Positions 1,657 to 51,487 of a stretch of 64,000 nt of DNA are shown in pieces. This DNA is from an uncultured Eubacteriales bacterium (GTDB lineage Bacteria; Bacillota; Clostridia; Christensenellales; UBA1242). Made by a program: the position numbers and the translations under genes. The first letter of the stretch is position 1. Every line of letters begins with the position of its first letter. The notes beneath the pieces are model-generated. The model did not search any database. It was not told the origin of the DNA and saw only the letters and a program-made list of their open reading frames with translations. The DNA lies in the NCBI GenBank assembly GCA_949077035.1, contig CARUPR010000002.1:4218-68217 (forward strand). The letters are read 5' to 3'.

Positions 1657-1684
1657 TTGACAATTTCTTTTAAAGTGGTATAAT
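1657..1684 (+). promoter_or_regulatory. Near-consensus sigmaA promoter with an extended -10, serving the lipoprotein gene
   Basis: TTGACA (1657-1662), a 16-nt spacer, then TGgTATAAT (TG at 1676-1677, TATAAT at 1679-1684), about 75 nt upstream of the ATG at 1759. Confidence 0.75.
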
Positions 1685-1758: not shown

Positions 1759-2100
1759 ATGAAAAATAAAATGGTGGGGGGGGGAATTCTTAAGAAGTTG
1801 GTTCCCTTTATGATGGCTGCTGTTGCAGTGGTTGTGACTGCATTAAGTATGACAGGCTGCACATATAAAGCAAAAGGGGTTACTAAATTTGTTTTTGTAA
1901 AAGATGAATATCTTATTTATAATAGAGTTTTGCATAAGGGTGATGCTTATACTGAGCAATCAGTCATTGATGATATAACTGCTCCAACTCCAATAATTGA
2001 TGCACATTGTGGATTGAAAAGAGGAACAAATATGTATACTCATTCAAAAGAAAAGCCACATGAGAGCGAATATGACTCAATTTGTGATATCTGCTTTTAA
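1759..2100 (+). CDS. Small lipoprotein (113-aa precursor) carrying an in-frame G9 tract
   Basis: Signal peptide MKNKMVGGGILKKLVPFMMAAVAVVVTALSMTGC ends in the lipobox SMTG-C. RBS is AAGGAG. A strong promoter lies upstream and an intrinsic terminator downstream. Confidence 0.7.
   Translation: MKNKMVGGGILKKLVPFMMAAVAVVVTALSMTGCTYKAKGVTKFVFVKDEYLIYNRVLHKGDAYTEQSVIDDITAPTPIIDAHCGLKRGTNMYTHSKEKPHESEYDSICDICF
1776..1784 (+). repeat. Homopolymeric G9 tract within codons 6-9 of the lipoprotein gene
   Basis: The sequence reads atggtGGGGGGGGGaattc. By eye, the only other G/C run this long in the window is at 47651-47659. Confidence 0.95.
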
Positions 2101-4062: not shown

Positions 4063-7000
4063 TTATTCTCCCATTTCTTTTTGTTCTGGCTCTTGTTCTT
4101 TTGGTTTGTTGTTATCATCTTTGACAGTTTCATTTTTGTTTTCTTTTTCAGATGAAATATTTGTATAACTTTCACTTTGTTTTTTGATAGAGTCAGATTT
4201 AAGCCAATCTTTTTCTGGAGCTTGAGCTTTTTCTTTGGCCTTACTAAAGAGCTTAAACAAGTTTCTAAGACCATTTCCACGTTCTCTTCGCTCTTGCTTT
4301 TCAAATGGTTTTTCCATTTTGGTTGTAAGAGCTTTTTTATAAGATGCTGAAAAGTCTTCATTCTTTTCTTGTTGAAGGACTTTAAGGTCATTTCTGATTT
4401 TTTGCAACAATTTTTTCTTTTTATCAGACTTAGCAAGCTCTTCTGGTTTAATTTTAAGACGTCTTAATAAAACAGGGTCGATTGCTTCAAAGTCAATGTT
4501 TGCATCTTTGCACAAGTTTATAAGCAGGGTATAATCGATTTTGTCATCATTTTTGATTTCAACAGCTTGTTTTTCAAAGAATTTGGTGTCGCCTTTAGCA
4601 AAAGCTTCAATTGCTTTGTCAACAATATCTTCAGGCACTCCTTTTTCTGCAAGACTTTCAATGAATCCAACTTTCTTTTCAAATGTTTCGATATCTTGGT
4701 TAAGTTGGTCAAGTTGATTAAGCTCGTCAAGTAAATTCTTATCATCTTCATTAAGAAGGTCTTTCTTAATTTTAAGTGTTTCAATTTCATTTTGCTTATC
4801 TGTAAGGTTGGCATTAACTTGTTTTTCAATACCAGTATTATCAATTTCGTTTAATTTGTTTTTGATATTGTCTTTGTTTTCATCTTTTAAGATGTCTTGT
4901 AAATCTTTTGCATTTAAACCTATGCTTGACAATAATTCATTTGAATAATCTGCAGCTCGTTTTACATCTGCTGATATTTTCTTTTTCATTTTTTTGTCAA
5001 TGATTGCATTGTCTACAAACATATTCAAGAAATTGTAATTATTGTTTTTAATTGATTCTTCCCAACAATATTTAAATTCTTCAGCAATATTTGAAAATTC
5101 TTTAAATTTGTTTTCCTTAATCCAAAGCTCTTTTTGAGCATCGATAGAAAGTCCATTTTTTGAAATTTCTTTATATTCTTTTTTGAATTGACTATTATAA
5201 ATACCAAAATGTTTTGCAATATTTTTAGGTGAAGCTTCTGGATTTTCTACAATATAATCTATTAGCTCTTGCTTATAGTTGCGTTTGAAATTTGCATATC
5301 CGAGAAGTGGTTGAGCGTTTTCTGTTGTTGGTAGTTTGTTTTCTTGTTTTAAAAGATTTAAAATCAAATCGTAGACATTATTAATATCTTCAAGACCATT
5401 TGCTTTCTTCTTGTTTTTATTATGTTTTGCTTTTTGTCTATTAAGCTCATTGTCAACAGTCTTTTCACCCAAAGTTTTATCATAACAATGACTTTCAACC
5501 TTTGCATGAGCATTGAGAATATTGATTTGATTGTTTATAAATTCTTCAGCCTTTTTAATGCTAAATTCCTTACTGCTTGCATCCTTTTCATCTTTTAAAA
5601 TGATTCCTTTTTTATAAATATCATCAAATTTTAAAGAGCCAATATTTGTGGTGATTTTTTTGTTTTTAAGCATATCTGATATTGCGGTTGAAATATCTTT
5701 TCCACTTGAAATTTCTTTAAGTTTGTTGATAAGATTTTGTCTTTCGCTGAGTTTGCCTTCCTCATGTTCTGTAGAAAGATTTAAAGCATCAATAAGTCTG
5801 TTTGTGTTTTGATAGCCTTGAATATTGGTTTTTGCATCGTTTAACTGCTGTTCAAGCATCTCTGTTGTAATATTAAATTTATCGATAGTTTGATTTAACT
5901 TTGTTTTTGAATAGTTGCAACCTGCATCAACCAAAGCTCTATCAAAACAAAGTTCGAAATAGCTGCCATTTAATACATTTTCAATCACATTTATCGTTGA
6001 TTTATAATTATCAATCTTTTCCTTTGACAATTTTATCATATTATCATCAGCAATTGCATTTTCAAAAGGATGGATTTCAATTGCTTTTTCAATGATTGAA
6101 AGGGTGGTTGCAATGTTGGTTAAGTCAACTTCGGTATATCTCATATCCAACATAAATGTATTTTTTAAAGATGTAACTTTATTTAAAACTTCATCTTCTG
6201 ATACATTTAATTGATTGATATTTTTGCCAAAAGTAGTTGAAATATCAGTCAAAATATTTTTGCATAAATCTGATGTTTTTGTTGAAATATTATTAAATAT
6301 TTTGGTTTGTATTGCATTATATGCCTCAGAAAGTTCAATGGCTTTTTCAGACATATTGTTTTGTTTGTCTTTTTGCGAGGATATAGTTGCAATAATTTCA
6401 TCAAATGTCCCTTGATTAGATTCTAAGTTAGGTTTTTTTAAATCTGGCAAGATTATTCCTGATGGGACGCCTTTTTCAAGTGGTGCATCAAATAAATTAT
6501 TGAAATCTGTAAAAAGCTGTGTTATTAAATTTTGACAATCGGTGGTATAAGCATCATTATTAAATTCTTCTAAGATGAATGAATAAGCAAAATCATCTAA
6601 ATTGATATTTGAAGCTATTTCTTTGTCTTTGGTAATAATAGAACGAATTGATTTGTTGAGAATTATTTGTTCTACAGAATTTCTTGCCTCTTGATAACTA
6701 TGAAATTTGTCTTCTTTTTGATTGCTTTCAAGTTCATTCATAACTTTGGCATAATTTGCTGCCTGTTGCAAGTTTGCAATGCTGTCTCTGTTTTCTTTTG
6801 CAATGACATCAATTTTATCTAGCGATGAATTGATGTTGTCATTTGCTGCAATCAAAGAATCAAAAATTTCAACCTTTTCTTCATTTGGCACATCTTTTAA
6901 AATCATGTCAAGTTTTGTTTCATTTATATTCTTGTCAACAGAAAGTCTTCTTATAATGGCATGAGCATAGCGGTCTAATATCTTCTTTCTGGTGACTTGG

Positions 7001-9132
7001 TCAACCTCTTTTCCATTCATGATTTTTGAAAGTTGTCTGTCATTTGATTTTTCAATCATTGCTTCTTGATTGTTTATCATTGACTGAATTTTCTCTTCAT
7101 TTCTTACAACAACATCAAGATGATTGATAAAATCATTTAAATAGTCCGCCTTATTTTCAGAGAACATATTATTGATAAACTTATCTTTTTTATCTTCTGG
7201 AATATTGTTGAAATTTGAATTGATGAAATTATTGATAAGAACATTTCTTTTTTCGGTTGTTGTTTCATTTTGGATATTTTTCAGTGAAGAAAGCATATTT
7301 TGCTTGATTTTAAGACCATCACTGCTCATAAGTCTATCAAATCTTGGGATAGAATGTTCAGCTTCTAAATCTTGTGAGAAACCAACACCATAATTTTCAT
7401 AAATGTTGTAAAAACTATTTGCATTTTCATTTGAGAGGTAGAGGAAGTTGTAAAGTTCTTGCTCTCTTTTATACATATTTTCAACAGATTTGTTTAAATC
7501 TTTTTCGTTTTCATGGAATTTTTCGGCAAATTTGTTGTCTTCATCTTCCTGCTCTTCAATTTCGGCAACTCTGCTGTAAGCTATGTCAAATGATTTGATG
7601 ACAGCTTTATCTTTAAAGGCGACCATTGCTGAGCCAACCCCGACAAGAGCCATTCCAATAAAAGCTAGGGCGACAAGACCTCCAGTAAGCAATGCACCAA
7701 TACCAATGAAGAAGCCTAAAACAGCAATTGCATTTCCATAGTTTTCGGCGAACTTTTTAAAGTCATGTTCTTTTGTCGATTTTATTAAAGGCTTGTCTTT
7801 ATCATCCTCTTTGTCTTCTGGTTTTGCTTCTGTTTCTTGCTGAGGTTTTTTGTCATCTTTGTCATTTTCATTATTTTCCTCTGGGGGTTTTTTGTCATCT
7901 ACAATAGGCTCTACAAAATCATGGTTTTCATCTTCCTCTTCAGGCGTTTTATCGTCACTGCCATCATCGTCATCATCATCATTATCGTCAAAAAGCATAT
8001 TATAAGTTTCTGGCTTAAGATTATAAACATAGTCTGCATAATCTCTTTCATCCTTTTTAGAGAAGACCAAACCGCCAATTGTTTTATCAGTTTCTGCAGG
8101 CTCTTTTGCAGCCTCATAACCTGAAAGCTGACTTAATAATTCAATTGCCTGCTTTGACTGAGAAGTGAAATTGCCGTCTTTATCCTGTTTTAAATCTAAG
8201 GCAATAGAGCGTCTGTTGACAGAATTTTTGTTTTTTGCCGACTTAGGTGCAATTTGAATCACAAGCCTTGGGACTTCCACTCCATTTACAACTTCATAAA
8301 GAAGATTCATTTTTTCAAGTCTTTCAAATTTTCCATTGATAAAAAGGAAGTTGTCTTTTGTATTATCTTTTTCGTTTTGTTTTGAAATAAAGAAATAAGG
8401 TATATTGTCGGTATTATCTTTTTCGCTGCTAGGGTCAATAGTGGTGATTGAATAATCTCCAAATTTTGCAGATTCATTGCCACGATAAATTCCTGCATAG
8501 AGTGCAAGATTTTTTATTGGGAAGTCGTTTAGGTCTTTAGGTGAGGCATAACTTTTGCCAGAAGCCTTGTTTGTTGTCCTAAACATCTCATTGTCTTTGT
8601 CAAGGAAGGCTTCAACCGCACTTGCATTTAATGACACATCAACGCCAATGCCGGCTTGAAAATCTGAAGTATGAGAGAAAACATTGCCTTCATTATCGGC
8701 GATTTTTATTGATGTCGCATCAGAAGTGATTGTATAAACTTTGCCGCTTGATGCTGTAATTTGAAAGCAAGTTGCGCCATGCTCTTTTGAAATGGTTATG
8801 CTGCCTTGACCAGGTTTTATGTCAAGGGTGGCGGTCCCTAATTCATCAACAAGAGTTTTGCCATCAGCAGTTTTAAAGAGTGAGAGGTCGGAAAATTTGA
8901 GGGTATAACCATCATCCTTAGCCTTATCGATAGAAAAAATTTCTCGCTTAGTAGGAGTGCCATTTTCAAAAACTTGGTCAGAAAATTCAAAGAAATGCTC
9001 GGATAATGGGTCGATTGCCAAAGTTTGTCCTACGACAATTTCTTTTCCTTCTTGATTTTTTAATTTTTTACCATTCTTATCAACAGGTGAAATTTTGTTT
9101 GTCAAAGAATTAATATTATTTAAAATAGCCAT
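4063..9132 (-). CDS. Giant (1,689 aa) membrane-anchored coiled-coil protein of unknown function
   Basis: The reading frame is uninterrupted. I place the start at ATG 9132, where AAGGAG lies 6 nt upstream; the ORF-track start at 9147 contains that RBS. There is no signal peptide. An N-terminal domain of about 400 aa is followed by an acidic run (DDNDDDDDDGSDD) and a roughly 39-residue hydrophobic hairpin (AIAVLGFFIGIGALLTGGLVALAFIGMALVGVGSAMVAF). The remaining ~1,100 aa are K/E/N-rich and look helical. Confidence 0.8.
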   Translation of the reverse strand: MAILNNINSLTNKISPVDKNGKKLKNQEGKEIVVGQTLAIDPLSEHFFEFSDQVFENGTPTKREIFSIDKAKDDGYTLKFSDLSLFKTADGKTLVDELGTATLDIKPGQGSITISKEHGATCFQITASSGKVYTITSDATSIKIADNEGNVFSHTSDFQAGIGVDVSLNASAVEAFLDKDNEMFRTTNKASGKSYASPKDLNDFPIKNLALYAGIYRGNESAKFGDYSITTIDPSSEKDNTDNIPYFFISKQNEKDNTKDNFLFINGKFERLEKMNLLYEVVNGVEVPRLVIQIAPKSAKNKNSVNRRSIALDLKQDKDGNFTSQSKQAIELLSQLSGYEAAKEPAETDKTIGGLVFSKKDERDYADYVYNLKPETYNMLFDDNDDDDDDGSDDKTPEEEDENHDFVEPIVDDKKPPEENNENDKDDKKPQQETEAKPEDKEDDKDKPLIKSTKEHDFKKFAENYGNAIAVLGFFIGIGALLTGGLVALAFIGMALVGVGSAMVAFKDKAVIKSFDIAYSRVAEIEEQEDEDNKFAEKFHENEKDLNKSVENMYKREQELYNFLYLSNENANSFYNIYENYGVGFSQDLEAEHSIPRFDRLMSSDGLKIKQNMLSSLKNIQNETTTEKRNVLINNFINSNFNNIPEDKKDKFINNMFSENKADYLNDFINHLDVVVRNEEKIQSMINNQEAMIEKSNDRQLSKIMNGKEVDQVTRKKILDRYAHAIIRRLSVDKNINETKLDMILKDVPNEEKVEIFDSLIAANDNINSSLDKIDVIAKENRDSIANLQQAANYAKVMNELESNQKEDKFHSYQEARNSVEQIILNKSIRSIITKDKEIASNINLDDFAYSFILEEFNNDAYTTDCQNLITQLFTDFNNLFDAPLEKGVPSGIILPDLKKPNLESNQGTFDEIIATISSQKDKQNNMSEKAIELSEAYNAIQTKIFNNISTKTSDLCKNILTDISTTFGKNINQLNVSEDEVLNKVTSLKNTFMLDMRYTEVDLTNIATTLSIIEKAIEIHPFENAIADDNMIKLSKEKIDNYKSTINVIENVLNGSYFELCFDRALVDAGCNYSKTKLNQTIDKFNITTEMLEQQLNDAKTNIQGYQNTNRLIDALNLSTEHEEGKLSERQNLINKLKEISSGKDISTAISDMLKNKKITTNIGSLKFDDIYKKGIILKDEKDASSKEFSIKKAEEFINNQINILNAHAKVESHCYDKTLGEKTVDNELNRQKAKHNKNKKKANGLEDINNVYDLILNLLKQENKLPTTENAQPLLGYANFKRNYKQELIDYIVENPEASPKNIAKHFGIYNSQFKKEYKEISKNGLSIDAQKELWIKENKFKEFSNIAEEFKYCWEESIKNNNYNFLNMFVDNAIIDKKMKKKISADVKRAADYSNELLSSIGLNAKDLQDILKDENKDNIKNKLNEIDNTGIEKQVNANLTDKQNEIETLKIKKDLLNEDDKNLLDELNQLDQLNQDIETFEKKVGFIESLAEKGVPEDIVDKAIEAFAKGDTKFFEKQAVEIKNDDKIDYTLLINLCKDANIDFEAIDPVLLRRLKIKPEELAKSDKKKKLLQKIRNDLKVLQQEKNEDFSASYKKALTTKMEKPFEKQERRERGNGLRNLFKLFSKAKEKAQAPEKDWLKSDSIKKQSESYTNISSEKENKNETVKDDNNKPKEQEPEQKEMGE

Positions 9133-9374
9133 TAAATTCTCCTTCATAAATATATATTAATAATATTATACAACCTTATATAATAAAAGTCAAGATTTCG
9201 ACATTGTTTGTGCCTAAAATTTGAAAAATTGGAAATAAATTTTATAGAAGTAGTTTATTTGACAAGGTTTTGACAAAATCTACCCTTAAAGTTGAGATTA
9301 ATGGCAAATTTATTTTGACTTTTTATCTTTTTTTGTATAAAATATTATACTGAAAGTGTTTATAAGGAGAAATA

Positions 9375-17793: not shown

Positions 17794-20700
17794 TTATTTC
17801 ACTTTTTGACGTTTTCTAAGGGCTATTGTTATGCCGATAACAACGCCAACTGCAATGACACCAATCACGATTGCAATGATTGCGAAAGCATTGAGAGGGT
17901 CAGTTCTGACAACTTTATATGAATATAAAAGGTGGCCGCTTGCAGTGTAAAGTTGAATATAATAAGTGCCTGATTGAAGAACGGTAATTCTTTCATTTTC
18001 TGCATAACTTGAAAGATTATCTGCGGTGTAATCTCTTCTTAGAGTGTCTATCAACAGATAGCAATCACCAACAGTATCGTAAAGATTTTGCACATTGAAA
18101 GAAATTACAATATCTTTTGTTGTTTTTTCACCTTCTGGTAATGAAACGCTGATAGGTGGGTTGGCAGTATTTATCCAAAATTCAAAAGTGAAGGTAGAAC
18201 CAATTGTATTTATAAGTTCGCTATTATTAAGGTTGATTGTGATTTTATACCTTCCGCTTCCTGTTTTTTCATCAAGGTAGTTGATGGTAAGAGCAGATAA
18301 ATATTCTTTTCCATCGATATTGATTGTAGGGAAGTTTGCAATTTCAATAAGTGAATCTGTGATATCAAGATTGTCTTTTTCAATCTTTTCGACATAATAT
18401 TGACTATATCCAGAGAATTCATAGGCATATCTTGATTCATTTTTGTTGAGGATAGTAAAGCTATATTCTTCAGTGCGGACAGGAATACCTGTGATTGAAG
18501 TTGCATTAAATGAAATTGTATAGAATCCTGCATTAGAGAATGTGTATGTGTTGTTTGAAGATGTAAAGCCTGTATAATCTCTTCCATTTCTCTTTACGCT
18601 TATTGTAGGCATCCTTGAAGGTTGATAATAAGTTGAAAGATTGGTTGGTTTGATTATCACAGAACTATTGTAAACAGCTTTTTGAATTGGTTCTGTTATT
18701 ATTGTTTCACCAGCTTCATTTGTGCTTGAAATGGTGAAAGGCACATGACTAAGGAAGATTATATCAATATATTTACTTGTTTTAAACATCTGCACATTGG
18801 CAGGCGAACAAGAATCGTATATTTTGATTCTATAAGTTCCTGGCTCATTTAAGAACACATAAGAGTCAATTTTATCAGAATAAATCGTGCTGTTGACCAC
18901 TACATATTCGCCATTAAACAATTTTGTTATTTCAAGATTGATTTTGTTTGCTTCAATTCCATAATAGCTTGAGAAGTTGAGCTTAAGTTTATTAAAACTT
19001 GTATCAGTTTCTTTATTAGCAACGATTACAACTGAATTTTCATCCTTTATTGATGCTGTAGTTCCGGTAGGTGTTTCGTAATTAAATGTGCTGATAATAT
19101 TGTTTGTTTCTGCAATATAAATTATTGTGAAGTCACCAGCCGATTCGCTGCAACTATAATGATAAATTTCAACTGTCACATTGCTGCCAGTGCTGTCTAT
19201 AATAGGTGTTGAAAGTTCAACTTTTGCTTTTTCATTGGTTGTAATTTTGATACGATTGTTCTTATCTGCATAATCAACACTTACAATATAATTGTTTTCT
19301 ATGGTTTTGTTGTCAAGGGTAGTGTATTTTACATCACTTTTTTCAACATTAAGACCATCAACAGTTATATAATAGAATGAGTTTGAACTATCAAGTATTG
19401 ATACCTTGTAGATTTTGCATAACTCTGTGAAAACTTCATCACTGTCATATTTGACGAGTATTGTATAATCGCCAACACCTGAAATAGTATAACCGCTTGT
19501 TTCTGATGTATTGCTGTTTATATTAACCCATGTCAAACCATTGTCGTTTGAAATATAAACACTATAACCATAGCCAGTTTCATAATTTAATTTGCTGTTG
19601 TAATTTAAGCTTTGACCATTGAAGAATCTAACTGTTACATTTTCAGAATAGGTGGTTATGTTTTCTGATGTCCCATAGTAAGTCTTGCCATTAAAGTTTA
19701 CACTTGTGTTTGGCACAATTCCGATGTTTGACTCTTCTATAGGTTGTTGGTTTTTATCATTGAAGATAATTCCACCAGCAATCACCTCATTTGCATAAGA
19801 AGTTCTGAAAGGTAATTTGTTATAAAGTCTTATGTGTAAGGTTTTGATGATATTTTCGCTTTCAACATCATGGACGATAAGCTTATAATAATCATCATAG
19901 AATACCTCTTTTGAAGGTTCAAACTTAAGCTGGCAAAGATTTGTTGAAGAATTTATATTTGAAGTAATATCATTTGTCACATCAATTCCATCTTTATTTA
20001 ATACCTTTAAGCTATATAACAGGGTATTAAATGTATAGTTGATTGTATTTGAAGATAGATATGTGATAGTGCCGTCATTTTCAGCAAGTTCATAAACTGT
20101 GCTTAATCCTGTCACTTCTCGATAACTTACCTCATTTGCAAGCTGAATAATTGTTGTGATGTTTCCAAAATTGTCAACAATGTCATATCTGACTTTTTGT
20201 GCCGAGTTTGCACCCAAATTTATTGCAATTTGAAGGGTGGTATTTCCTGGCAGGGTTTTGAAAGTGATAAATGATAATGCTGAGATGTATTCCTCTGTTG
20301 GAGTCCATGTCCCATAAATTAATTGGTTGGCTTCCATTATCTTATTCCACTTATTGTCTGTGGTTGCATTGCTATTAAATTGTGAAATGGTAATTTTTGT
20401 TGGATAAACATAACTTGTTTTTTCACTTGCAACTTGTGCTGAAGTTGGGACATTTATATTAAGTATCGCTGATGTTTTGGTTGGGTCTTCCACCTTTTGG
20501 GTATTCAATGTTGCATCCATCACCGAAATATAAATTTGTGAAGAGAGACCAAGTGTCCTGTCAGCAAGCACCATAGTATGCTTATCTGAAGAAGAAGTCA
20601 CATTTTCAAACAGAGAAGAAAGCGTTTTGATTGTGAAGGTGATTCCACTTGAAGGGAAGGCAATTTGATAAATCTGATTGTCTTCAAGCCAAGGTGATTT

Positions 20701-23700
20701 TAAATATCTTATAGTGCCTTCGCCAGCTTTAGTTAAGGTGAAATAACCCCAGTCATCAGATTTATAATTTAAATCCTTTATTTCAAATCCGCTGTTTGAA
20801 TAGATATTGAAACCATCTTTAATTTGGTCATTTTCTATTGTTACATCATCTTTTAATACCGCATTTGTGTATTTTATAGCTGTATTTTGTTGTTCTGAAA
20901 CATCTTCAATGCCAGAGGAGAGCTGAACAATATAAACAGTCATATTTTTTGCATAATCCATTTCAACGATTTCATAATAGCCATATCTTAAGTCGGAAAT
21001 TTCTTCATCAGTTGGAATAAATCTATAAATTCTTTCAGAGAATGAATTTTTGTCAATTTGAGTATAACTTTTGATGTTGTCTATTTCTCTATAATAGATT
21101 GCTTGAGTATCGTAAGGATTGTTTGGAGCATCTAAGAGGGTTGAAACAAGGGTGTCTGTGAAGAAGTCTTTTGTCACATTAAAGCTGAAATACTTAAAGT
21201 ATCCATTGTCTACATTGTAAGTATAGCTTGCTTCATTAATAGTGGAAAGGGTGACATTGTTGATTTCTTCATTTTTATAATCATAATACTTTCTCATTGA
21301 CATAAGTTGATAGTTTGCTGTCAATGATTTTGTTGCATTTTCAGTCATATACATCAAATTTTGCAGGTTTTGAGAAGGAAGAGTTTTGTCAAAATATATT
21401 CTTTTTGTTATTGAAGAATAATAATCTCTGTTGAAACCTTCAAATTGCATTGTAATTTCAATGTATAAGTCTTTTAAATTGCTTTTGATAAAATTTTCTG
21501 TATTTATAGTAAATGATTTTGTATTGCCGTCAGTGACAATCTCATTTCGAGTATCTGTGAAAGGTATTTGAGAATTGCTTGACCTGATTGAAATTGTTTT
21601 TTCATCAATTTTAGCTTCATATTCACTTTCAGGGACTTCCCACTGAATTGTCAATGAATCTGAATTTGTGAAATAGTTGTTTTTTGTATCTTTTGTGCTG
21701 TTTAAAAGATATCCGTCAGAGCCTAAAATGTCAAAGTCAGGAGTTTGTGATGTGATTTCAAATCCAAACTTATAAAGGCTGAAAAATTCGCTTGTATTTC
21801 CTATGTTGGATGCCTGATAGATTGTTACAACATAATTTCCCTTTTGATAGAAATTGTTTATTGGAGATGATTTATCAATATTTCCATTCTTTCCACTTGC
21901 AGGGTAGAGATTGAGATAACCATTGGTTTGAGTTCCGTCAGAGTAATAATATTTTTCAACCTCTTTATTGTTTTCAATAACCTTTGCCTGCACTTCAGCG
22001 AAGATTTGATATTCTTGAATTGAAATTGAATTTATATATTCAAGTGCATCGCTTTCTCTTGTAAAGCTATCTACAAGCACACCTTCTACATAAACATCAT
22101 AGCTTCTGTTAGAACTGTTATATTCATATCTTGCATTTCCATAGTAAGAAAGGTTGTCATTCTTATTTAAAGTATAATCTTTTATATTGTTATCATTTAC
22201 AGAAGCAACGCTTGATATAGTATATTTATATTTTGGAATATAAAGTGATATTGGAAGCTTGTTTCCGCTTATTGCAACACTTTGAATACTATCATTTTCT
22301 TTATAGTTTTCTTTTGAATAGAATGAACCATTGTTTAAACCATTTTGGTTATATTTTGGGAATGATATTTCAATTGAAGAGTTGTTGCCGCTGTAGAAGC
22401 TTAAAAGGATATCGCCGCCAACCAAACTTTCAAGTGAAGAAATGATATTTCCATTTTCATCTGTCAACACTCTTCCATTTTCATCAACAGCATTGACAGG
22501 TTCAAGTTTGCTGATAAGACCTTTGTCGTCAATTATTATCGATAAAGTGCGTCTAAAGAAATCATTTTTTGAATTGTTTTCATTTTGTGAATTTTCTTTA
22601 TATGTTCTTTCAAAGACATATTTGCCAGGAAGAGGAGTATTGTTTGAACCAAGGGCTAAATTAAATTCCTCTTGTTGACCAGTTTCATATTTTAAGTCTG
22701 ATGCAGTGAAAACTGCTAATTTTTGTGATGGCTCATCTTGTAAATCATAGTAGTAATAATAATTGTTGTTGCCTGGGTATTTCATCAATTTTGGGATGAA
22801 AGGGTAATAATATAATGTGATGTTTTGAAGTTCTGACCCATTTTCAGCAACAGGTATATAGGTAAGTTTCAATTCCTGTTTTGCTGTGGTAGGTGAGTAA
22901 TATGAGAATTTGTATTTATAATCAGATTTTATATAATCTTTGTCATTAATTTTGCCGTTTATATGTGTATAAACTATATTCTCGTTCTCATCTTCATATG
23001 TATAAAGATTTCCTACCAAACTGAAGCTTGAGAAATCAAGGACTTCATTTTTTGAATTTTTAAGCATCATCTGAGAAGCATCTGCAGTCACATTGAAAGA
23101 AATATAACCACTAGGATAGTTTTTATAAAGAATTTCCTCATTTTCTGCAAAGAAGGTATTTGAGGCATCGCGGACTAAAATTTTAAAGGTTTTGTTGTCA
23201 GCGATGACATTATTATCTTCATCATAGAATTCGATATCATATCTATATTTTTCATAATCAAGAGTTGGCAGTATAGGTGAGAAGTTTGAGCTGTCGCCAT
23301 CTTTCAAATAATACTTTTCGTTTATATCAATTACCAGATAGAAGCTGTTGTAATTTGTTATGCCTGTTTCTTCTTTAGGTTGTGTGGTTATTTCCCTAAT
23401 ATTTTTTAATTTTTCATTATTAGTTTTCTTGAAAAATTCGCCAACTTTTTCGTGAAGTTTTTCGCTTGCATTTGCTATATCAATGCCATATTGATATGGT
23501 GTGATAGACAAAATATCATCAATATTTTCAATGTAAATAGCCTTTTGCTGTGACCAAACGATTGAAATATATGTTCCAACTGGTGGCACAGGCAGACATT
23601 CATTGTTTTTGAATAAACTTCTTGACACATTTCCGTCATCTATTTCTTGAATAAACACTGGTGAAGATGTATCAATCAAATAAATCTCAAAAGCAGAGTT

Positions 23701-26262
23701 TCCAGCTTGGTCATAAACTTCAAGAATATAGAAACCATCATTAGACTTAACATAAGTTGAAGGAATGGTAGAATTGTAAGAAGATGAATTTGCATATTCT
23801 GTCCATTGCATACGATTGCTTAAATCAATTTTACTTGAGATTGGCAATATTTTTTCATTGAGAAGCGAACTTATAAGTCTTGATTGCTCACTTGAAGAAA
23901 GTGAAGAATAATAGTTTATCTGTTTTGTTGGGATATAACTTACATATCCATATGTTTTGGCTCCACTTGCCTTTTCGTCCCAAGATAAAACAAATGGTTG
24001 GTTTGTGTTGTAAGAAGAAAATTCATCTTTTACTTGGTAGGTTGTTGTGGAAATCAATGATACATTTCTTGAAGAAATATTCTTGATTTGATTTGTGTCG
24101 ATAGTAAAAGTTCTGGTGCTTGGTTTTGATGAATTTGATGAGGTTATTTTAATGGTGAAATATGCATTTGAATATTTGTTTGCAGTTTCAATCAAAATAC
24201 CATTCTTGTTTGCGATTTTTTCATTGAAATCTTTACTAAAATCATCGTCATTTTCTGATGCAGCAAAAGTTTGGTATATCATGTTGTAAGAAGCCAAATC
24301 TTGAATAAGGACATCTTTGAAGAAATATGATTTGTCTTGATAGTTTTGTGCAGAGAGGGTTATTTCAACTTTTGCGTCATAGATATTGTTTTCTGCATTG
24401 TTTAAAATATAAACATTTTTGTTGGTAAATCCATTTGTATAAACTTCATTAAGTTGGCCGTCAAAGACATCAACAGTTGGGGTAGTGTTTGAAATTGTAA
24501 AGTAGAAAATTTGATAGTGATATTTTGCACTTTGAAGTGTCCCGCTTGTGGACATAAATGAATCAAACTTATATTGAATTATATAAAGGTATCTTCCTGC
24601 TGCATTTTGATTGTCACCCAAAAATTCCTCAGTATCTAAAACATCGTTGTCATTATTAAGTTTATAAATTCTGCTGAATTCTCTGTCATTTTTAGCATTT
24701 GTTGAGAATTTGATAGGTGGCTGATTGGTCGAAGCAGGTGATAATTTTTCTTTCACAATTGCATTTAAGGCATAATCTTTTAATTTTTCTATATCAAAAT
24801 TTTTATCGCTGCTTGGATTTGCATTTTTAAGGATATTTTTAATGGTTTCATCTGCAGTAGCATCTGTTAAGATATGATTGTTTACTATGCTTGTAATATC
24901 TGCAGAAAGATAATATCCATCTTTATCATCATATGATTTTATATCCTTGCTTTTTGGCTGGTTTGTGTTTATGTTTATATCTGAATAGTCAGAATACATA
25001 GTTTGATAACCATAGATATACAATCTTTGAGATTTGTTTTTAAAAATTGAATTGTTGCTAAGTTCTTCTAAATCTAAATTATAGATTGTAGTCTTGCCAT
25101 CTCTTTCAATTGTGTAAAGGTATGAGAATGAAATATCATAACTTCCAATATCAGAGAAGACAATTGTTGCAGTTTTCTCGCCATTATCTTCTTGCAGATA
25201 ATATCTTACAAATCCATCTTTTTCAGAAATTTCATTTCCTAATTGGTCAAGTGCAACAAGTTTTCCATCTTGATACTCAATCTTTGTTTGTGATTTGTTG
25301 TTGTCAAGGTTTGAATACTCGACAGTAAGTGAAAATTTTTCAGGATTGAAACTGATTGAAGGAAGGGTGTTTACTTTGTTTGAATATGCAAAATTATAAA
25401 AATAGTAAGTTGAAAAGTCATTTGATGAGGTTAAGTTTGAAATTTGCAAGTTTTCAGAAGGTGTGATTTGTGGTTTTCCACTTGCTGTATCAAAATATGT
25501 ATTTGAATTAAATATCATAAAGTTGTAATAAATATCACGCTTTGTTGATTGAAAAGTTATTCCGCCATTGGTTGTTTTAAATTCAAGGATTGGCACAACC
25601 AAAGTGTAAATTCCTTCTTTATTTAAAATGACTTGATTTTTCGTGTCTTCTTCACCAAACTCAATATTTGCATTGTTGGTGTTAAGTAAAAATTCTAAGT
25701 TGAATTGTTTTGGGGTGAGAGAGGTATTTGATGGTATGAATGAATGTTCATGTGCTTTAAAATAATTTTGTGGAGATTGATAATTAAGAAGGTTTTCTTT
25801 GTCACCCAAGTTATTATTTGCCACATCCTGTGAGGTAAGGTCATAATAGAGGGCGATTGCAGATTCGGTATAATCAAAATAATAGTAAACCTGATTATTA
25901 TCCTTTTGTGGTTGATAATAATAGTTTTCTTCGGTATAAGAATCTGTTCCGTCTTCATTTTTTACTTCATCTCTTGTGATGGTGTCTGTTGCAATGCTTA
26001 TGGTATTATAACTTCCATTTTGAAATAAATAAACAGTATCGCCAACATTTGAAACTTCAATTCCATTTCCATTTGAAGGAGAAATTTGAAAGTAATCGGG
26101 CAAACTGTTTGAAATTTGCGATTGCGAAGCAAAATCGGCATGAGAATATTCTTCACCGCCAACCTTATTTAAATTTAAAGTAAGAAACCCGCCAAAACTC
26201 AAGCTAAATATTAAGGCCAAAGGCAAGGAAAGTTTTTTAAATAAATTTGAAATTTTTTTCAT
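17794..26262 (-). CDS. Giant (2,822 aa) surface protein with an N-terminal signal peptide and a C-terminal TM anchor; adhesin-like
   Basis: The start is set at ATG 26262, with GAGGTG 4 nt upstream. The signal peptide is MKKISNLFKKLSLPLALIFSLSFGGFL. The body is N/S/T/Y-rich and looks beta-rich. The C-terminus is LNAFAIIAIVIGVIAVGVVIGITIALRKRQKVK. I saw no LPXTG motif. Confidence 0.8.
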   Translation of the reverse strand: MKKISNLFKKLSLPLALIFSLSFGGFLTLNLNKVGGEEYSHADFASQSQISNSLPDYFQISPSNGNGIEVSNVGDTVYLFQNGSYNTISIATDTITRDEVKNEDGTDSYTEENYYYQPQKDNNQVYYYFDYTESAIALYYDLTSQDVANNNLGDKENLLNYQSPQNYFKAHEHSFIPSNTSLTPKQFNLEFLLNTNNANIEFGEEDTKNQVILNKEGIYTLVVPILEFKTTNGGITFQSTKRDIYYNFMIFNSNTYFDTASGKPQITPSENLQISNLTSSNDFSTYYFYNFAYSNKVNTLPSISFNPEKFSLTVEYSNLDNNKSQTKIEYQDGKLVALDQLGNEISEKDGFVRYYLQEDNGEKTATIVFSDIGSYDISFSYLYTIERDGKTTIYNLDLEELSNNSIFKNKSQRLYIYGYQTMYSDYSDININTNQPKSKDIKSYDDKDGYYLSADITSIVNNHILTDATADETIKNILKNANPSSDKNFDIEKLKDYALNAIVKEKLSPASTNQPPIKFSTNAKNDREFSRIYKLNNDNDVLDTEEFLGDNQNAAGRYLYIIQYKFDSFMSTSGTLQSAKYHYQIFYFTISNTTPTVDVFDGQLNEVYTNGFTNKNVYILNNAENNIYDAKVEITLSAQNYQDKSYFFKDVLIQDLASYNMIYQTFAASENDDDFSKDFNEKIANKNGILIETANKYSNAYFTIKITSSNSSKPSTRTFTIDTNQIKNISSRNVSLISTTTYQVKDEFSSYNTNQPFVLSWDEKASGAKTYGYVSYIPTKQINYYSSLSSSEQSRLISSLLNEKILPISSKIDLSNRMQWTEYANSSSYNSTIPSTYVKSNDGFYILEVYDQAGNSAFEIYLIDTSSPVFIQEIDDGNVSRSLFKNNECLPVPPVGTYISIVWSQQKAIYIENIDDILSITPYQYGIDIANASEKLHEKVGEFFKKTNNEKLKNIREITTQPKEETGITNYNSFYLVIDINEKYYLKDGDSSNFSPILPTLDYEKYRYDIEFYDEDNNVIADNKTFKILVRDASNTFFAENEEILYKNYPSGYISFNVTADASQMMLKNSKNEVLDFSSFSLVGNLYTYEDENENIVYTHINGKINDKDYIKSDYKYKFSYYSPTTAKQELKLTYIPVAENGSELQNITLYYYPFIPKLMKYPGNNNYYYYYDLQDEPSQKLAVFTASDLKYETGQQEEFNLALGSNNTPLPGKYVFERTYKENSQNENNSKNDFFRRTLSIIIDDKGLISKLEPVNAVDENGRVLTDENGNIISSLESLVGGDILLSFYSGNNSSIEISFPKYNQNGLNNGSFYSKENYKENDSIQSVAISGNKLPISLYIPKYKYTISSVASVNDNNIKDYTLNKNDNLSYYGNARYEYNSSNRSYDVYVEGVLVDSFTRESDALEYINSISIQEYQIFAEVQAKVIENNKEVEKYYYSDGTQTNGYLNLYPASGKNGNIDKSSPINNFYQKGNYVVTIYQASNIGNTSEFFSLYKFGFEITSQTPDFDILGSDGYLLNSTKDTKNNYFTNSDSLTIQWEVPESEYEAKIDEKTISIRSSNSQIPFTDTRNEIVTDGNTKSFTINTENFIKSNLKDLYIEITMQFEGFNRDYYSSITKRIYFDKTLPSQNLQNLMYMTENATKSLTANYQLMSMRKYYDYKNEEINNVTLSTINEASYTYNVDNGYFKYFSFNVTKDFFTDTLVSTLLDAPNNPYDTQAIYYREIDNIKSYTQIDKNSFSERIYRFIPTDEEISDLRYGYYEIVEMDYAKNMTVYIVQLSSGIEDVSEQQNTAIKYTNAVLKDDVTIENDQIKDGFNIYSNSGFEIKDLNYKSDDWGYFTLTKAGEGTIRYLKSPWLEDNQIYQIAFPSSGITFTIKTLSSLFENVTSSSDKHTMVLADRTLGLSSQIYISVMDATLNTQKVEDPTKTSAILNINVPTSAQVASEKTSYVYPTKITISQFNSNATTDNKWNKIMEANQLIYGTWTPTEEYISALSFITFKTLPGNTTLQIAINLGANSAQKVRYDIVDNFGNITTIIQLANEVSYREVTGLSTVYELAENDGTITYLSSNTINYTFNTLLYSLKVLNKDGIDVTNDITSNINSSTNLCQLKFEPSKEVFYDDYYKLIVHDVESENIIKTLHIRLYNKLPFRTSYANEVIAGGIIFNDKNQQPIEESNIGIVPNTSVNFNGKTYYGTSENITTYSENVTVRFFNGQSLNYNSKLNYETGYGYSVYISNDNGLTWVNINSNTSETSGYTISGVGDYTILVKYDSDEVFTELCKIYKVSILDSSNSFYYITVDGLNVEKSDVKYTTLDNKTIENNYIVSVDYADKNNRIKITTNEKAKVELSTPIIDSTGSNVTVEIYHYSCSESAGDFTIIYIAETNNIISTFNYETPTGTTASIKDENSVVIVANKETDTSFNKLKLNFSSYYGIEANKINLEITKLFNGEYVVVNSTIYSDKIDSYVFLNEPGTYRIKIYDSCSPANVQMFKTSKYIDIIFLSHVPFTISSTNEAGETIITEPIQKAVYNSSVIIKPTNLSTYYQPSRMPTISVKRNGRDYTGFTSSNNTYTFSNAGFYTISFNATSITGIPVRTEEYSFTILNKNESRYAYEFSGYSQYYVEKIEKDNLDITDSLIEIANFPTINIDGKEYLSALTINYLDEKTGSGRYKITINLNNSELINTIGSTFTFEFWINTANPPISVSLPEGEKTTKDIVISFNVQNLYDTVGDCYLLIDTLRRDYTADNLSSYAENERITVLQSGTYYIQLYTASGHLLYSYKVVRTDPLNAFAIIAIVIGVIAVGVVIGITIALRKRQKVK

Positions 26263-26505
26263 AAAACACCTCACAAATATTTTATCACAAGCAATAAAAA
26301 AAACAAAATAAATTTGTGTGTTTATATAAATAATATTAAATATTATTATATAAATAATATACTAAGAATATATAAGTATTAAATATAATACTAAACTATT
26401 GTATACATAATATAATTTTTTAACCAACTTCTAAGCTATTTTTAATTTTAATTGAAAAAAATGTCAAAAGGGATGAGATTTTCATAAATAAGTAAAGAGG
26501 TAATT

Positions 26506-47118: not shown

Positions 47119-47610
47119 TTATAAAAAACACTTATTTAATTCATTGAAAGAATTAAAAAAAAGCATATCGTTTAATATGCTTTTTTTGCAGTGATTAAAG
47201 ACTGTTTTCTTCTTCCTCTTCAATCTTTTTTCAAATAAATCTTCTTTTTTAAGATTGTTTTGCTGTGTTAAATTAAGCACTGTATCTGTCATTTTTATGC
47301 TTGGGTTTTGCATTACAGCGGCAAGCACAATATCCTTATCATTTTTAAGTTTATCTGGTGCAAAAGGGAAATTTTTTACAGCTTCAAGCACAATTTCTTT
47401 GTCATGTTTAAGTTCTTTAGGTTCATTCTTTAGTTCATTATTATGTTCATTATTATAAATTTTTACAGCTGCACGCGCAACTTCTTCGTCAACTTTAATT
47501 TTATTTGATACATAATGAAGATTTTTTGCAACTTCAAGCAAAATTTCTTCGTCGATTTTAAGTTTCTCTTCATTATTATTTAAATTAGGTTTTTTTGCTT
47601 TATTTTTCAT
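47119..47610 (-). CDS. DUF4116-repeat protein; the 3' end may be a decayed remnant
   Basis: Repeats include EEILLEVAKNLHYVSNKIKVDEEVARAAV and DKEIVLEAVKNFPFAPDKLKNDKDIVLAAVMQNP. RBS is GAGGAGG. The ORF reads through a terminator hairpin at 47154-47187. Confidence 0.6.
   Translation of the reverse strand: MKNKAKKPNLNNNEEKLKIDEEILLEVAKNLHYVSNKIKVDEEVARAAVKIYNNEHNNELKNEPKELKHDKEIVLEAVKNFPFAPDKLKNDKDIVLAAVMQNPSIKMTDTVLNLTQQNNLKKEDLFEKRLKRKKKTVFNHCKKSILNDMLFFNSFNELNKCFL
47154..47187. terminator. Bidirectional intrinsic terminator lying inside the tail of the DUF4116 ORF
   Basis: aaaaaaaaa GCATAT cgttta ATATGC ttttttt. Confidence 0.7.
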
Positions 47611-47641
47611 AAATCCTCCTCAATATTAATTGTATAACTTA

Positions 47642-47668
47642 ATTATACTCGGGGGGGGGAATTGTCAA
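47642..47668 (-). promoter_or_regulatory. Consensus promoter whose spacer contains a C9 (G9 on the + strand) tract
   Basis: The reverse strand reads TTGACA (47663-47668), then att-CCCCCCCCC-gag as a 15-nt spacer (47648-47662), then TATAAT (47642-47647). It lies about 30 nt upstream of the DUF4116 start. Confidence 0.7.
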
Positions 47669-47783
47669 GCCCTTTTTTTAAAATTCATAAAAAATTTGAC
47701 TATTCTAAAAACAGAGCTTGTCACATAATTTTAATATATGAAAGCTTGTCTTTCTAAATATTTAAAATGGAGTATGGTCAAAA

Positions 47784-49229
47784 GTGGCCATTAAATGTGA
47801 ATTAGTGAAAAAAAATCTTAAAGGAACAACTAAATTTTTTTATGGTATAGGTGGGCTGGGTTATAGCTCTATGTCACAAACCCTAAATAGTTTTATCATG
47901 TTTTTTGCAACGGCTGTTATGGGCATTTCGGGGTCATTGGTGGGTATTGCAATTGCAATTTCTTCGCTATGGGATGGCGTCAGTGACCCTTTGATTGGTC
48001 ATCTTTCTGATAATACAAAAAACAAATTTTTTGGTAAGCGATTGGGTTTTATGTTTTTTGGTATTTTTGCCATAGCATTTTTAAATATTTGCATTTGGTC
48101 CATGCCGGCTGCACTGCCTGAAATGGGAAAGTTTTTTTGGCTTTTGATAGGTATGCTTGCCATTGAAAGTGCCAATACCTGTTTCGGAACACCCTATGCA
48201 GCATTGGCAATCGATATTGCGCCAGATTATAATGAGCAATCAAAATTGCAGGGGTTTAAAACTGTTTTTAATATCATAGGAATGATTTTGCCAAATATTT
48301 TAATGTATTTTTTCATGTCGTCAATTTCACTCAGCATACAGACAGGATTTACTCAACAAGGTTATATAAAAATTGCATATATTAATTCATTTTTGCTTAT
48401 AGGTCTTGGTCTTATCACAATATTTTCAACTTTAAAACATATAAGAAAAAACAAGATTTATAGTATAGAACAGCCTAAAGAGAAATTTGAATTTACAAAA
48501 TTGATGACAGGCTATTTCAGTGTGCTTAAGAAGAAGGATTTTAGGGCGGTTATATTAGGTTATTCTTTTGCAACAATTGCTTCATGCTTTTTGACATCTG
48601 TAGGTATGCATCTTTTCACATATTGTTATCATTTTTCAAGCACCCAAATTTCCTTTGTTTTGATTTCACTTTTTGGTGGTGCAATTGCATCACAACCGCT
48701 TTGGGTTTACCTTTCAAAAAGAATGGAAAAAAAGAGGGCTTTGATTATCTCCCTTTCAACCATAGTCTTAGGCATTTTTATGACTGTGATTACATTTTTG
48801 TTTCGTGATTATATTCCAAATGAGGCAATGTTTTATATTGCGATAATCTGCCTTATCTGTTGTGGAATAGGAGCAGGAGCAATGTATTCAATACCATTTT
48901 CTATGTATGCCGATGTGGTGACTTTAGAGCAGTTTAAAACAGGTCAAAACAATGCAGGCGCCTATACTGGTTATTTTACTTTTACCTATAATCTTGCCAA
49001 TTCATTTGCTCTATTAATTGTGGGATTTTTGCTTGATTTTATCAAGTTTGATTCAACTCAACCAATTCAAGCAATGTCTGTGCAAAGTGGTTTGGGCTTG
49101 ATTGTCTTCTTTGGTTGCACAATTTTCTTTTCCTTGGCAATTATGGTATTTTCAAAGTTTTCTGTCAAAAGGGCAGATGTTTTAAAAATTCAGATGAAAG
49201 AGATGAAAAAAACAAAAAATAATGATTAA
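47784..49229 (+). CDS. MFS transporter, glycoside-pentoside-hexuronide (GPH) symporter-like
   Basis: Has about 12 TM segments. YGIGGLGYSSMSQTL...LWDGVSDPLIGHLSDNT...FGKR is typical of the MelB/GPH family. The start codon is uncertain (GTG 47784). Confidence 0.75.
   Translation: MAIKCELVKKNLKGTTKFFYGIGGLGYSSMSQTLNSFIMFFATAVMGISGSLVGIAIAISSLWDGVSDPLIGHLSDNTKNKFFGKRLGFMFFGIFAIAFLNICIWSMPAALPEMGKFFWLLIGMLAIESANTCFGTPYAALAIDIAPDYNEQSKLQGFKTVFNIIGMILPNILMYFFMSSISLSIQTGFTQQGYIKIAYINSFLLIGLGLITIFSTLKHIRKNKIYSIEQPKEKFEFTKLMTGYFSVLKKKDFRAVILGYSFATIASCFLTSVGMHLFTYCYHFSSTQISFVLISLFGGAIASQPLWVYLSKRMEKKRALIISLSTIVLGIFMTVITFLFRDYIPNEAMFYIAIICLICCGIGAGAMYSIPFSMYADVVTLEQFKTGQNNAGAYTGYFTFTYNLANSFALLIVGFLLDFIKFDSTQPIQAMSVQSGLGLIVFFGCTIFFSLAIMVFSKFSVKRADVLKIQMKEMKKTKNND

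Positions 49230-49840: not shown

Positions 49841-51487
<1,647 letters not shown>

Follow-up and report, generated by a model that had tools for sequence, protein, structure and literature searches.

Within the window, as we call the whole 64,000-nucleotide stretch of DNA that was analysed, we identified a credible candidate for a promoter-strength switch that appears to have been assembled in its weak state. A predicted promoter on the minus strand carries two perfect hexamers, most of the spacer between them is a run of nine cytosines (the C9 tract), and it stands ahead of a small gene for a DUF4116-repeat protein, an architecture that would allow switching. The mechanism itself is already known, and what is new is the host, an uncultured low-GC member of the gut Clostridia, and the cargo, a DUF4116 eukaryote-like repeat protein. 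To our knowledge, the understanding of repeat-driven phase variation comes almost entirely from cultured pathogens (Neisseria, Haemophilus, Campylobacter, Helicobacter and Mycoplasma), and in gut commensals the main attention so far has been on invertible promoters. A literature search of incomplete coverage returned no description of homopolymer-based phase variation in gut Clostridia or gut metagenomes. Four of the six features that define promoter-spacer SSR phase variation were found at this locus: tract length, a position between the hexamers, a spacing-sensitive polymerase and an excess of long tracts. The six also include length variation among strains or populations and reversible, length-dependent expression.

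Promoter architecture and tract rarity

Read directly, the minus strand shows ggcTTGACAattCCCCCCCCCgagTATAATtaagttatacaattaatattgAGGAGGatttATG, and positions 47668-47608 (-) of the window resolve into TTGACA-att-CCCCCCCCC-gag-TATAAT-(21 nt)-AGGAGG-attt-ATG. A sequence-only reading that preceded this analysis had described perfect TTGACA and TATAAT hexamers, a 15-nt spacer and 9 nt of homopolymer within it, and every one of these factual elements proved correct. The features of the locus, together with a second tract in the window, are as follows.

47673..47679 (-): A7 run directly upstream of the -35 hexamer, putatively UP-element-like
47663..47668 (-): -35 hexamer TTGACA, 6/6 match to consensus, direct read; belongs to the sole perfect pair with a 15-nt spacer
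47648..47662 (-): promoter spacer att-C9-gag, 15 nt of which 9 are C, direct read
47651..47659: homopolymer tract, G9 on the plus strand and C9 on the promoter sense strand
47642..47647 (-): -10 hexamer TATAAT, 6/6 match to consensus, direct read
47635 (-): predicted transcription start, about 7 nt past the -10 hexamer, placed by geometry
47615..47620 (-): Shine-Dalgarno sequence AGGAGG, 4 nt ahead of the ATG
47119..47610 (-): DUF4116-repeat open reading frame (ORF), 163 aa as called, with three repeats (Pfam PF13475, E=3.5e-18)
47156..47187 (-): terminator-like hairpin with T-run, inside the tail of the called ORF (fold -12.6 kcal/mol, z=-5.2)
47700..47770 (+): conserved block upstream of the MFS gene (TATTCTAAAA..GCTTGTCACATAATTTTAATATAT..GCTTGTCTTT), from alignment with the closest species
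1776..1784 (+): G9 tract in codons 6-9 of the lipoprotein ORF 1759-2100

By these coordinates the repeat falls inside the spacer, flanked by the -35 and -10 elements, and the promoter is predicted to serve a gene. The ATG at 47610 lies 31 nt past TATAAT with AGGAGG between them, and the leader from the predicted start at about 47635 to the ATG would be about 25 nt long; a start near this position had been proposed before, and it would agree with the geometry of the promoter. There is no TG extended -10 in the sequence as read, and a run of A comparable to the A7 run also precedes the promoter of a related species that we describe below (locus L035). A promoter scan accepting 16-18 nt spacers omits the C9-tract site, and it does so only because of that range. 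Alternative hexamers that would give 16-18 nt spacing at C9 were considered and rejected as poor matches, both for a shifted -35 (GCTTGA) and for a shifted -10 (ATAATT, TAATTA). We also rejected TAGAAA-17-TAAAAT at 47756..47728 (-), a 9/12 match of a kind that occurs at chance rate (7 found and 6.2 expected).

Relatives were collected by a protein-guided scan of GTDB representatives, which yielded 77 loci from uncultured Clostridia with MFS protein identities of 51-94%. They are labelled Eubacteriales, Christensenellaceae, Christensenella or Catabacter, and their record names suggest gut samples from mouse (MGBC), rabbit (Lapin) and deer. Across the 707 kb made up of the window and these 77 loci we found 50 perfect TTGACA/TATAAT pairs, with a spacer of 17 nt in 37 cases, 16 nt in four, 18 nt in two and every other length in zero to two each. 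The lineage has an ordinary, sharp 17-bp spacer optimum. The C9-tract promoter, which is the sole 15-nt pair among the 50, is a genuine outlier: it is 2 bp short, and the missing length adjoins the homopolymer. Because promoters of this lineage strongly prefer 17 nt, a spacer of 15 nt falls two under the optimum and C11 would restore it; the sequence-only reading had likewise held that two more C would be optimal, a claim now backed by 37 of the 50 perfect pairs.

Runs of G or C are short in the window, which has a G+C content of 31.7%. There are 364 runs of length 3, 59 of length 4 and 8 of length 5, none of length 6-8, and only two of length 6 or more, both of them G9 on the plus strand. Models based on iid composition and on Markov chains of orders 1 and 3 predict 0.009-0.015 runs of nine or longer per window (an order-5 Markov control was discarded as circular, because such a model learns the tracts themselves); with two runs observed against about 0.01 expected, chance is excluded. 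Given the base composition, long tracts are in excess, as would be expected under selection for mutability, and by our own comparison the gap between the short runs and length 9 resembles that of genomes with contingency loci. A cut-off of 9 has been used for poly-G in Neisseria phasome prediction, and judged by its length G9 reaches this usual threshold for slippage-prone poly-G (PMC7371114). Also present in the window are two very large ORFs, one at 4063-9147 (-) encoding a low-complexity protein of 1694 aa that is rich in Lys, Asn, Asp and Glu, and one at 17794-26274 (-) encoding 2826 aa.

The second G9 tract lies within a coding sequence, in the part that specifies the signal peptide of a lipoprotein. 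ORF 1759-2100 encodes 113 aa, including a signal peptide with the lipobox LSMTGC, and has its own perfect promoter, TTGACA-16-TATAAT, at 1657-1684 (+). The frame is open only with G9, and G8, G10 and G11 lead to early stops. The gene is a candidate for translational phase variation, and its tract would represent the classical translational form of repeat-mediated switching. Flank GGGGGGGGGAATT is common to the C9 tract and the tract at 1776-1784, an observation already made in the sequence-only reading, which allowed for coincidence. The sequence confirms the sharing, the flanks on the other side of the two tracts have nothing in common, and the shared AATT is most simply a coincidence (about 1% for 4 nt, estimated from base composition).

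Tract length within the species and the DUF4116 cassette

Exact-protein look-ups located the locus in three other assemblies: GCA_949902715.1 and GCA_948653375.1, which are NCBI metagenome-assembled genomes (MAGs), and the Logan assembly SRR36216081. In all three, as in the window, the promoter tract is 9 long with identical flanks. Of the three, two match the window at 100% or 99.98% identity; SRR36216081, at 98-99.7%, therefore represents an independent strain. In ERR3199618 and ERR3199668, each 100% identical to the window, the coding tract at 1776 likewise stands at G9. We detected no variation in tract length among the four assemblies, which represent two distinct strains and, as consensus assemblies, hide minority variants. 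A search with the flanks, CTTAATTATACTC-N3-22-AATTGTCAAGCCC, gave 0 matches in genome contigs and metagenome contigs. Exact-protein look-ups of the neighbours (HU, the 242-aa protein, mini-RNase III, the TrmH-like and sigma-like proteins and the right-end ORF) returned a handful of contigs, and two of these look-ups had zero matches.

The invariant length of 9 is the main weakness of the switch hypothesis, and the length found throughout is the one presumed to be weak. A fixed attenuated promoter would have the same appearance, with a C9 tract that is stable (mismatch repair being intact and the length at the lower slippage limit), constant low expression and no switching, and it is favoured by the finding of length 9 at both tracts in every assembly, the divergent strain included. 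Such a promoter sits poorly with the rarity of the tract, a 9-mer G/C run being about 100-fold rarer under neutral composition than observed here and runs of 6-8 being absent, and a promoter can be weakened far more easily than by placing a homopolymer between perfect hexamers. We regard a fixed promoter as unlikely but as an alternative to be taken seriously.

Homopolymers are generally unreliable in assemblies, and this is all that speaks for chance co-occurrence or for a sequencing or assembly artefact. Against this stand the 0.01 runs expected where two were found, a match of 12/12 hexamer positions at the right distance from the Shine-Dalgarno sequence and the ATG, and the identity of the tract in independent MAGs and in Logan assemblies of other runs. 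The last of these argues that the promoter tract is no assembly artefact, and chance and artefact are already effectively refuted. Elsewhere in the window, at 49841-51478 (-), we observed a BclA-like collagen-repeat protein (Pfam Collagen and BclA_C) with 264-nt and 9-27-nt tandem repeats. It measures 545 aa in the window versus 449 aa in GCA_949902715.1, with flanks otherwise 100% identical, a difference that reflects either repeat-number variation or assembly collapse.

Comparison with the relatives showed how the locus is built. Sixty-two of them have the 242-aa gene next to the MFS gene in the same orientation, separated by a median of roughly 95 nt and with no DUF4116 gene between the two, compared with 784 nt in the window. 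Gene order is fully preserved in the closest species (94% MFS identity), but the DUF4116 gene is missing. As the gene is missing from the relatives, promoter, gene and hairpin make up a species-specific cassette in opposite orientation, and it is only through the insertion of this cassette that the MFS gene has a divergent neighbour. We found zero orthologous promoters in the 77 related species, which follows from the cassette being species-specific, and there was no G/C run at the equivalent position in any of the 77. The gap between the 242-aa and MFS genes is a hotspot for species-specific inserts across the relatives. These include a 240-aa lipoprotein (L015), a 300-aa secreted protein (L021), a G7 run within repeats (L013) and what reads as a tandem array of six units, each of 14 codons (42 nt) (L005 3496-3747).

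The DUF4116 protein has no signal peptide that is evident by eye in its sequence. When the window allele was compared with that of SRR36216081, the last ~37 aa of the called ORF were found to be a frameshifted tail. The SRR36216081 allele has one extra C near its 3' end and reaches a clean stop about 16 nt ahead of the hairpin; the window allele is without that C, a 1-nt deletion, and its ORF consequently runs through the hairpin at 47156-47187 into the tail. The hairpin is probably the cassette's real terminator. The SRR36216081 allele in turn is without exactly one 150-nt repeat, in frame (L004 2500-2920 compared with the window). These differences between two strains point to fast evolution or relaxed constraint.

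A decaying cassette is one way to interpret this history: the DUF4116 gene would have been acquired horizontally, parked in the off state and left to pseudogenise, and the tract would be a relic of the donor's switch. The frameshift through the terminator in the window allele and the 150-nt deletion in the other strain are in keeping with decay, as are the absence of the gene at the equivalent position from all 62-77 related species and the very small number of homologues, only 3, all distant, among 5.8 billion proteins. The one homologue that we examined (L092) does not have the tract, and its promoter region is ordinary. Decay is harder to reconcile with the conservation of the rest of the cassette. 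The two strains share an intact and identical promoter, Shine-Dalgarno sequence and start codon, and the same holds for most of the ORF, whereas neighbouring DNA has diverged by 1-2%, and the deletion is in frame and removed exactly one repeat. We judge decay to be improbable.

The divergent gene at 47784 encodes an MFS_2/GPH-type transporter (Pfam, E=6e-56), and the C9 tract lies inside the 173-bp region that separates the two divergent start codons. On this ground the sequence-only reading had linked the tract to the transporter gene, and the tract might act on the MFS promoter either by phasing an upstream element or through a shared bidirectional region as in hifA/hifB. The comparison with relatives does not sustain the link. 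Relatives in which the tract is missing keep the conserved block ahead of the MFS gene. This block and the tract promoter are distinct: the block begins near 47700, about 40 bp rightward of the tract, and its position on the right-hand side of that promoter argues against the tract serving the transporter. In addition, the ancestral arrangement has no divergent gene, and we located no convincing -35/-10 pair for the MFS gene and none that overlaps the tract. In the hifA/hifB type the repeat lies inside overlapping core promoters of both genes, and here the MFS block is some 40 bp away. We consider an effect on the MFS promoter highly improbable. The block at 47700-47770 and the regions upstream of MFS in L005-L008 contain a duplicated GCTTGTC motif, with the copies 27 nt apart, and the conserved block with these repeats may be an operator or a leader. 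A comparison with Rfam assigned neither the intergenic region nor the L035 leader described below to a family.

Spacer tracts in a related species and in metagenomes

The sole G/C run of at least 8 in 643 kb of related species lies at L035 4031-4039, and it too falls within a promoter spacer. This promoter (L035 4019-4045, +), aaaaaaagTTGACTtttggcGGGGGGGGGTATAAT, reads TTGACT-tttggc-G9-TATAAT with a 15-nt spacer. Downstream of it come a leader that is rich in GC and strongly folded, a membrane ORF of 86 aa and a BspA-type LRR protein of 478 aa. That a second species also stands at exactly G9 with a 15-nt spacer is a further point in favour of a fixed promoter. Only one contig exists for the L035 species, and the contig of its nearest relative (L093) ends inside the leader, before the promoter. 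Within the leader region (L035 3969-4360, +), about 95 nt of GC-rich RNA (about 4075-4167) form a predicted three-way junction. The fold computed over 216 nt reaches -76 kcal/mol (z=-7.5), and the locus set averages ~35% GC; it is possible that this RNA represents an unknown leader or small RNA. The L035 -35 hexamer lies within a perfect 15-nt inverted repeat (GCCAAAAGTCAACTT / AAGTTGACTTTTGGC).

We scanned public metagenomes with the pattern TTGACA-N0-6-C8+-N0-6-TATAAT in its C-strand version and obtained at least 120 stretches (L094-L213; for example L137 2076, L150 320(-), L155 712 and L174 7469(-)). They yielded at least 121 promoters in which both hexamers are perfect and the spacer contains a run of 8 or more C. 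Spacers of the listed promoters are spread over 13-20 nt; among the 121 listed, 21 have 15 nt, 30 have 16 nt, 30 have 17 nt, 11 have 18 nt and 10 have 19 nt. A 17-nt spacer is found in 30/121 of the listed poly-C promoters (25%) versus 37/49 of the ordinary ones (76%; Fisher p=1.2e-9). Chance matches are possible in a metagenome database this large, by our own estimate; the 15-17 nt peak among the listed matches is not the shape expected from chance. The frequency of the 15-nt spacer as an assembled state (21/121 among the matches listed) is compatible with a fixed promoter.

Variation in tract length was apparent in this set. Among the matches listed, near-identical flanks define 16 contig groups, and in 7-8 of the 16 the members differ only in tract length, for example C8 versus C9 in a group of seven, C9 versus C10, C10 versus C12 and C9 versus C11. 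That near-identical promoters elsewhere vary in this way, among the listed metagenome matches, argues against a fixed promoter; the length-polymorphic groups come mostly from other organisms of higher GC, and homopolymer sequencing error could explain part of the variation. Listed matches of low GC, several of them from human-gut records, closely resemble the C9-tract promoter, combining perfect hexamers and C8-C9 with a strong Shine-Dalgarno sequence and a leader some 20 nt long, and their targets are lipoproteins, small membrane proteins, orphans and one ankyrin-repeat protein. In L174 the core promoter, TTGACAATT-C9-GTG-TATAAT, is identical to the C9-tract promoter at 26/27 positions; its flanks are unrelated, and the likeness of the core therefore looks like convergence. 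Among the matches listed, promoters with poly-C or poly-G spacers would appear to be common and length-polymorphic across metagenomes.

Proposed mechanism and comparison with known systems

We propose that the C9 promoter is of the sigma-A (sigma-70) type, with a spacer that consists mostly of a slippage-prone C:G homopolymer, and that it would drive the small DUF4116-repeat gene. Together with its promoter and terminator, this gene would have entered the species as one self-contained cassette that now separates two otherwise neighbouring genes. With C9 the hexamers are 15 bp apart, 2 bp under the 17 of the lineage, so the assembled sequence should give a weak promoter. During replication, C:G pairs would be gained or lost by slipped-strand mispairing: C10 would give 16 bp, C11 the maximal 17 bp and C12 18 bp. 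The outcome would be heritable, reversible and graded changes in transcription. The model has three parts, all of which we infer from the features described above: activity of the promoter, dependence of its strength on tract length, and slippage of the tract in this organism. Should the length of the tract change, a change in promoter strength is very likely, as strength would follow tract length because of the sharp 17-bp optimum. It is moderately likely that the tract changes at a useful rate in this organism. Taken as a whole, an operating promoter-strength switch at the C9 tract is in our estimation probable, by a modest measure. The earlier proposal that tract length tunes transcription stands in part: the architecture, the 17-nt optimum and the recurrence of the design speak for it, and the finding of all assemblies at 9 speaks against it.

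A broader view is that uncultured low-GC gut Clostridia carry a hitherto undescribed set of G/C-homopolymer contingency loci, in which G9 gates translation of lipoproteins, spacing gates transcription of accessory genes and promoters of the poly-C/G class are widespread, the C9 promoter being one visible example. The gated accessory genes would be ones for host interaction, encoding eukaryote-like repeats (DUF4116, ankyrin) or forming BspA-type LRR operons, and the promoters would habitually sit one or two steps under the 17-bp optimum. We put this forward tentatively, as an idea that falls somewhat short of being probable. If the tract slips, uncultured gut Clostridia would use homopolymer switches, the graded spacing type included, for accessory proteins; MAG consensus sequences would then hide expression states, and tract length at such loci would need to be read from raw reads. 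Perfect hexamers combined with a G/C run of at least 8 and a spacer other than 17 nt would offer a signature of contingency genes in metagenomes.

The parallel with Neisseria promoter tracts that the sequence-only reading drew is apt for porA and fetA. At porA, 11G gives high surface expression, 10G gives about 2-fold lower and 9G about 13-fold lower expression (PMC3639595). By analogy with Neisseria meningitidis porA, where a G:C homopolymer also forms most of the spacer, the 9-mer described here would be predicted to be weak and control to be graded. The host differs: porA belongs to a Gram-negative pathogen, the C9 promoter to a low-GC uncultured member of the gut Clostridia. Both hexamers match the consensus perfectly here, and the target is a small DUF4116-repeat protein where porA encodes a porin; tract variation is documented for porA, and none was seen in the assemblies here. 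At fetA, the -10 and -35 hexamers flank a poly-C tract that ranges from C10 to C14 among strains (PMC5320596, Table 1). The C9 promoter shares with Neisseria fetA (frpB) and opc a sense-strand poly-C tract between, or overlapping, the promoter hexamers. The fetA and opc tracts are longer (10-14) and polymorphic among strains, whereas there are 9 C in every assembly here.

In Mycoplasma hyorhinis, which is low-GC and host-associated, a poly-A tract in the -35/-10 spacer sets the activity of the vlp promoters, whose targets are lipoproteins. The C9 promoter likewise has a homopolymer inside the -35/-10 spacer; the vlp tract is A:T and controls the multigene vlp family, whereas the tract here is G:C and no such family was seen. 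The likeness to hifA/hifB of Haemophilus influenzae (TA repeats) is that a repeat lies in the intergenic region between divergent genes. In hif, overlapping promoters share the repeat, whereas here the MFS block is outside the tract promoter and the divergence stems from an insertion. In Campylobacter jejuni (~30% GC), G/C runs of at least 8-9 are strongly over-represented and occur in genes for surface structures; these tracts lie mostly inside genes, and the organism is without mismatch repair. The 64 kb surveyed here show the same run-length gap as the poly-G contingency loci of Campylobacter jejuni.
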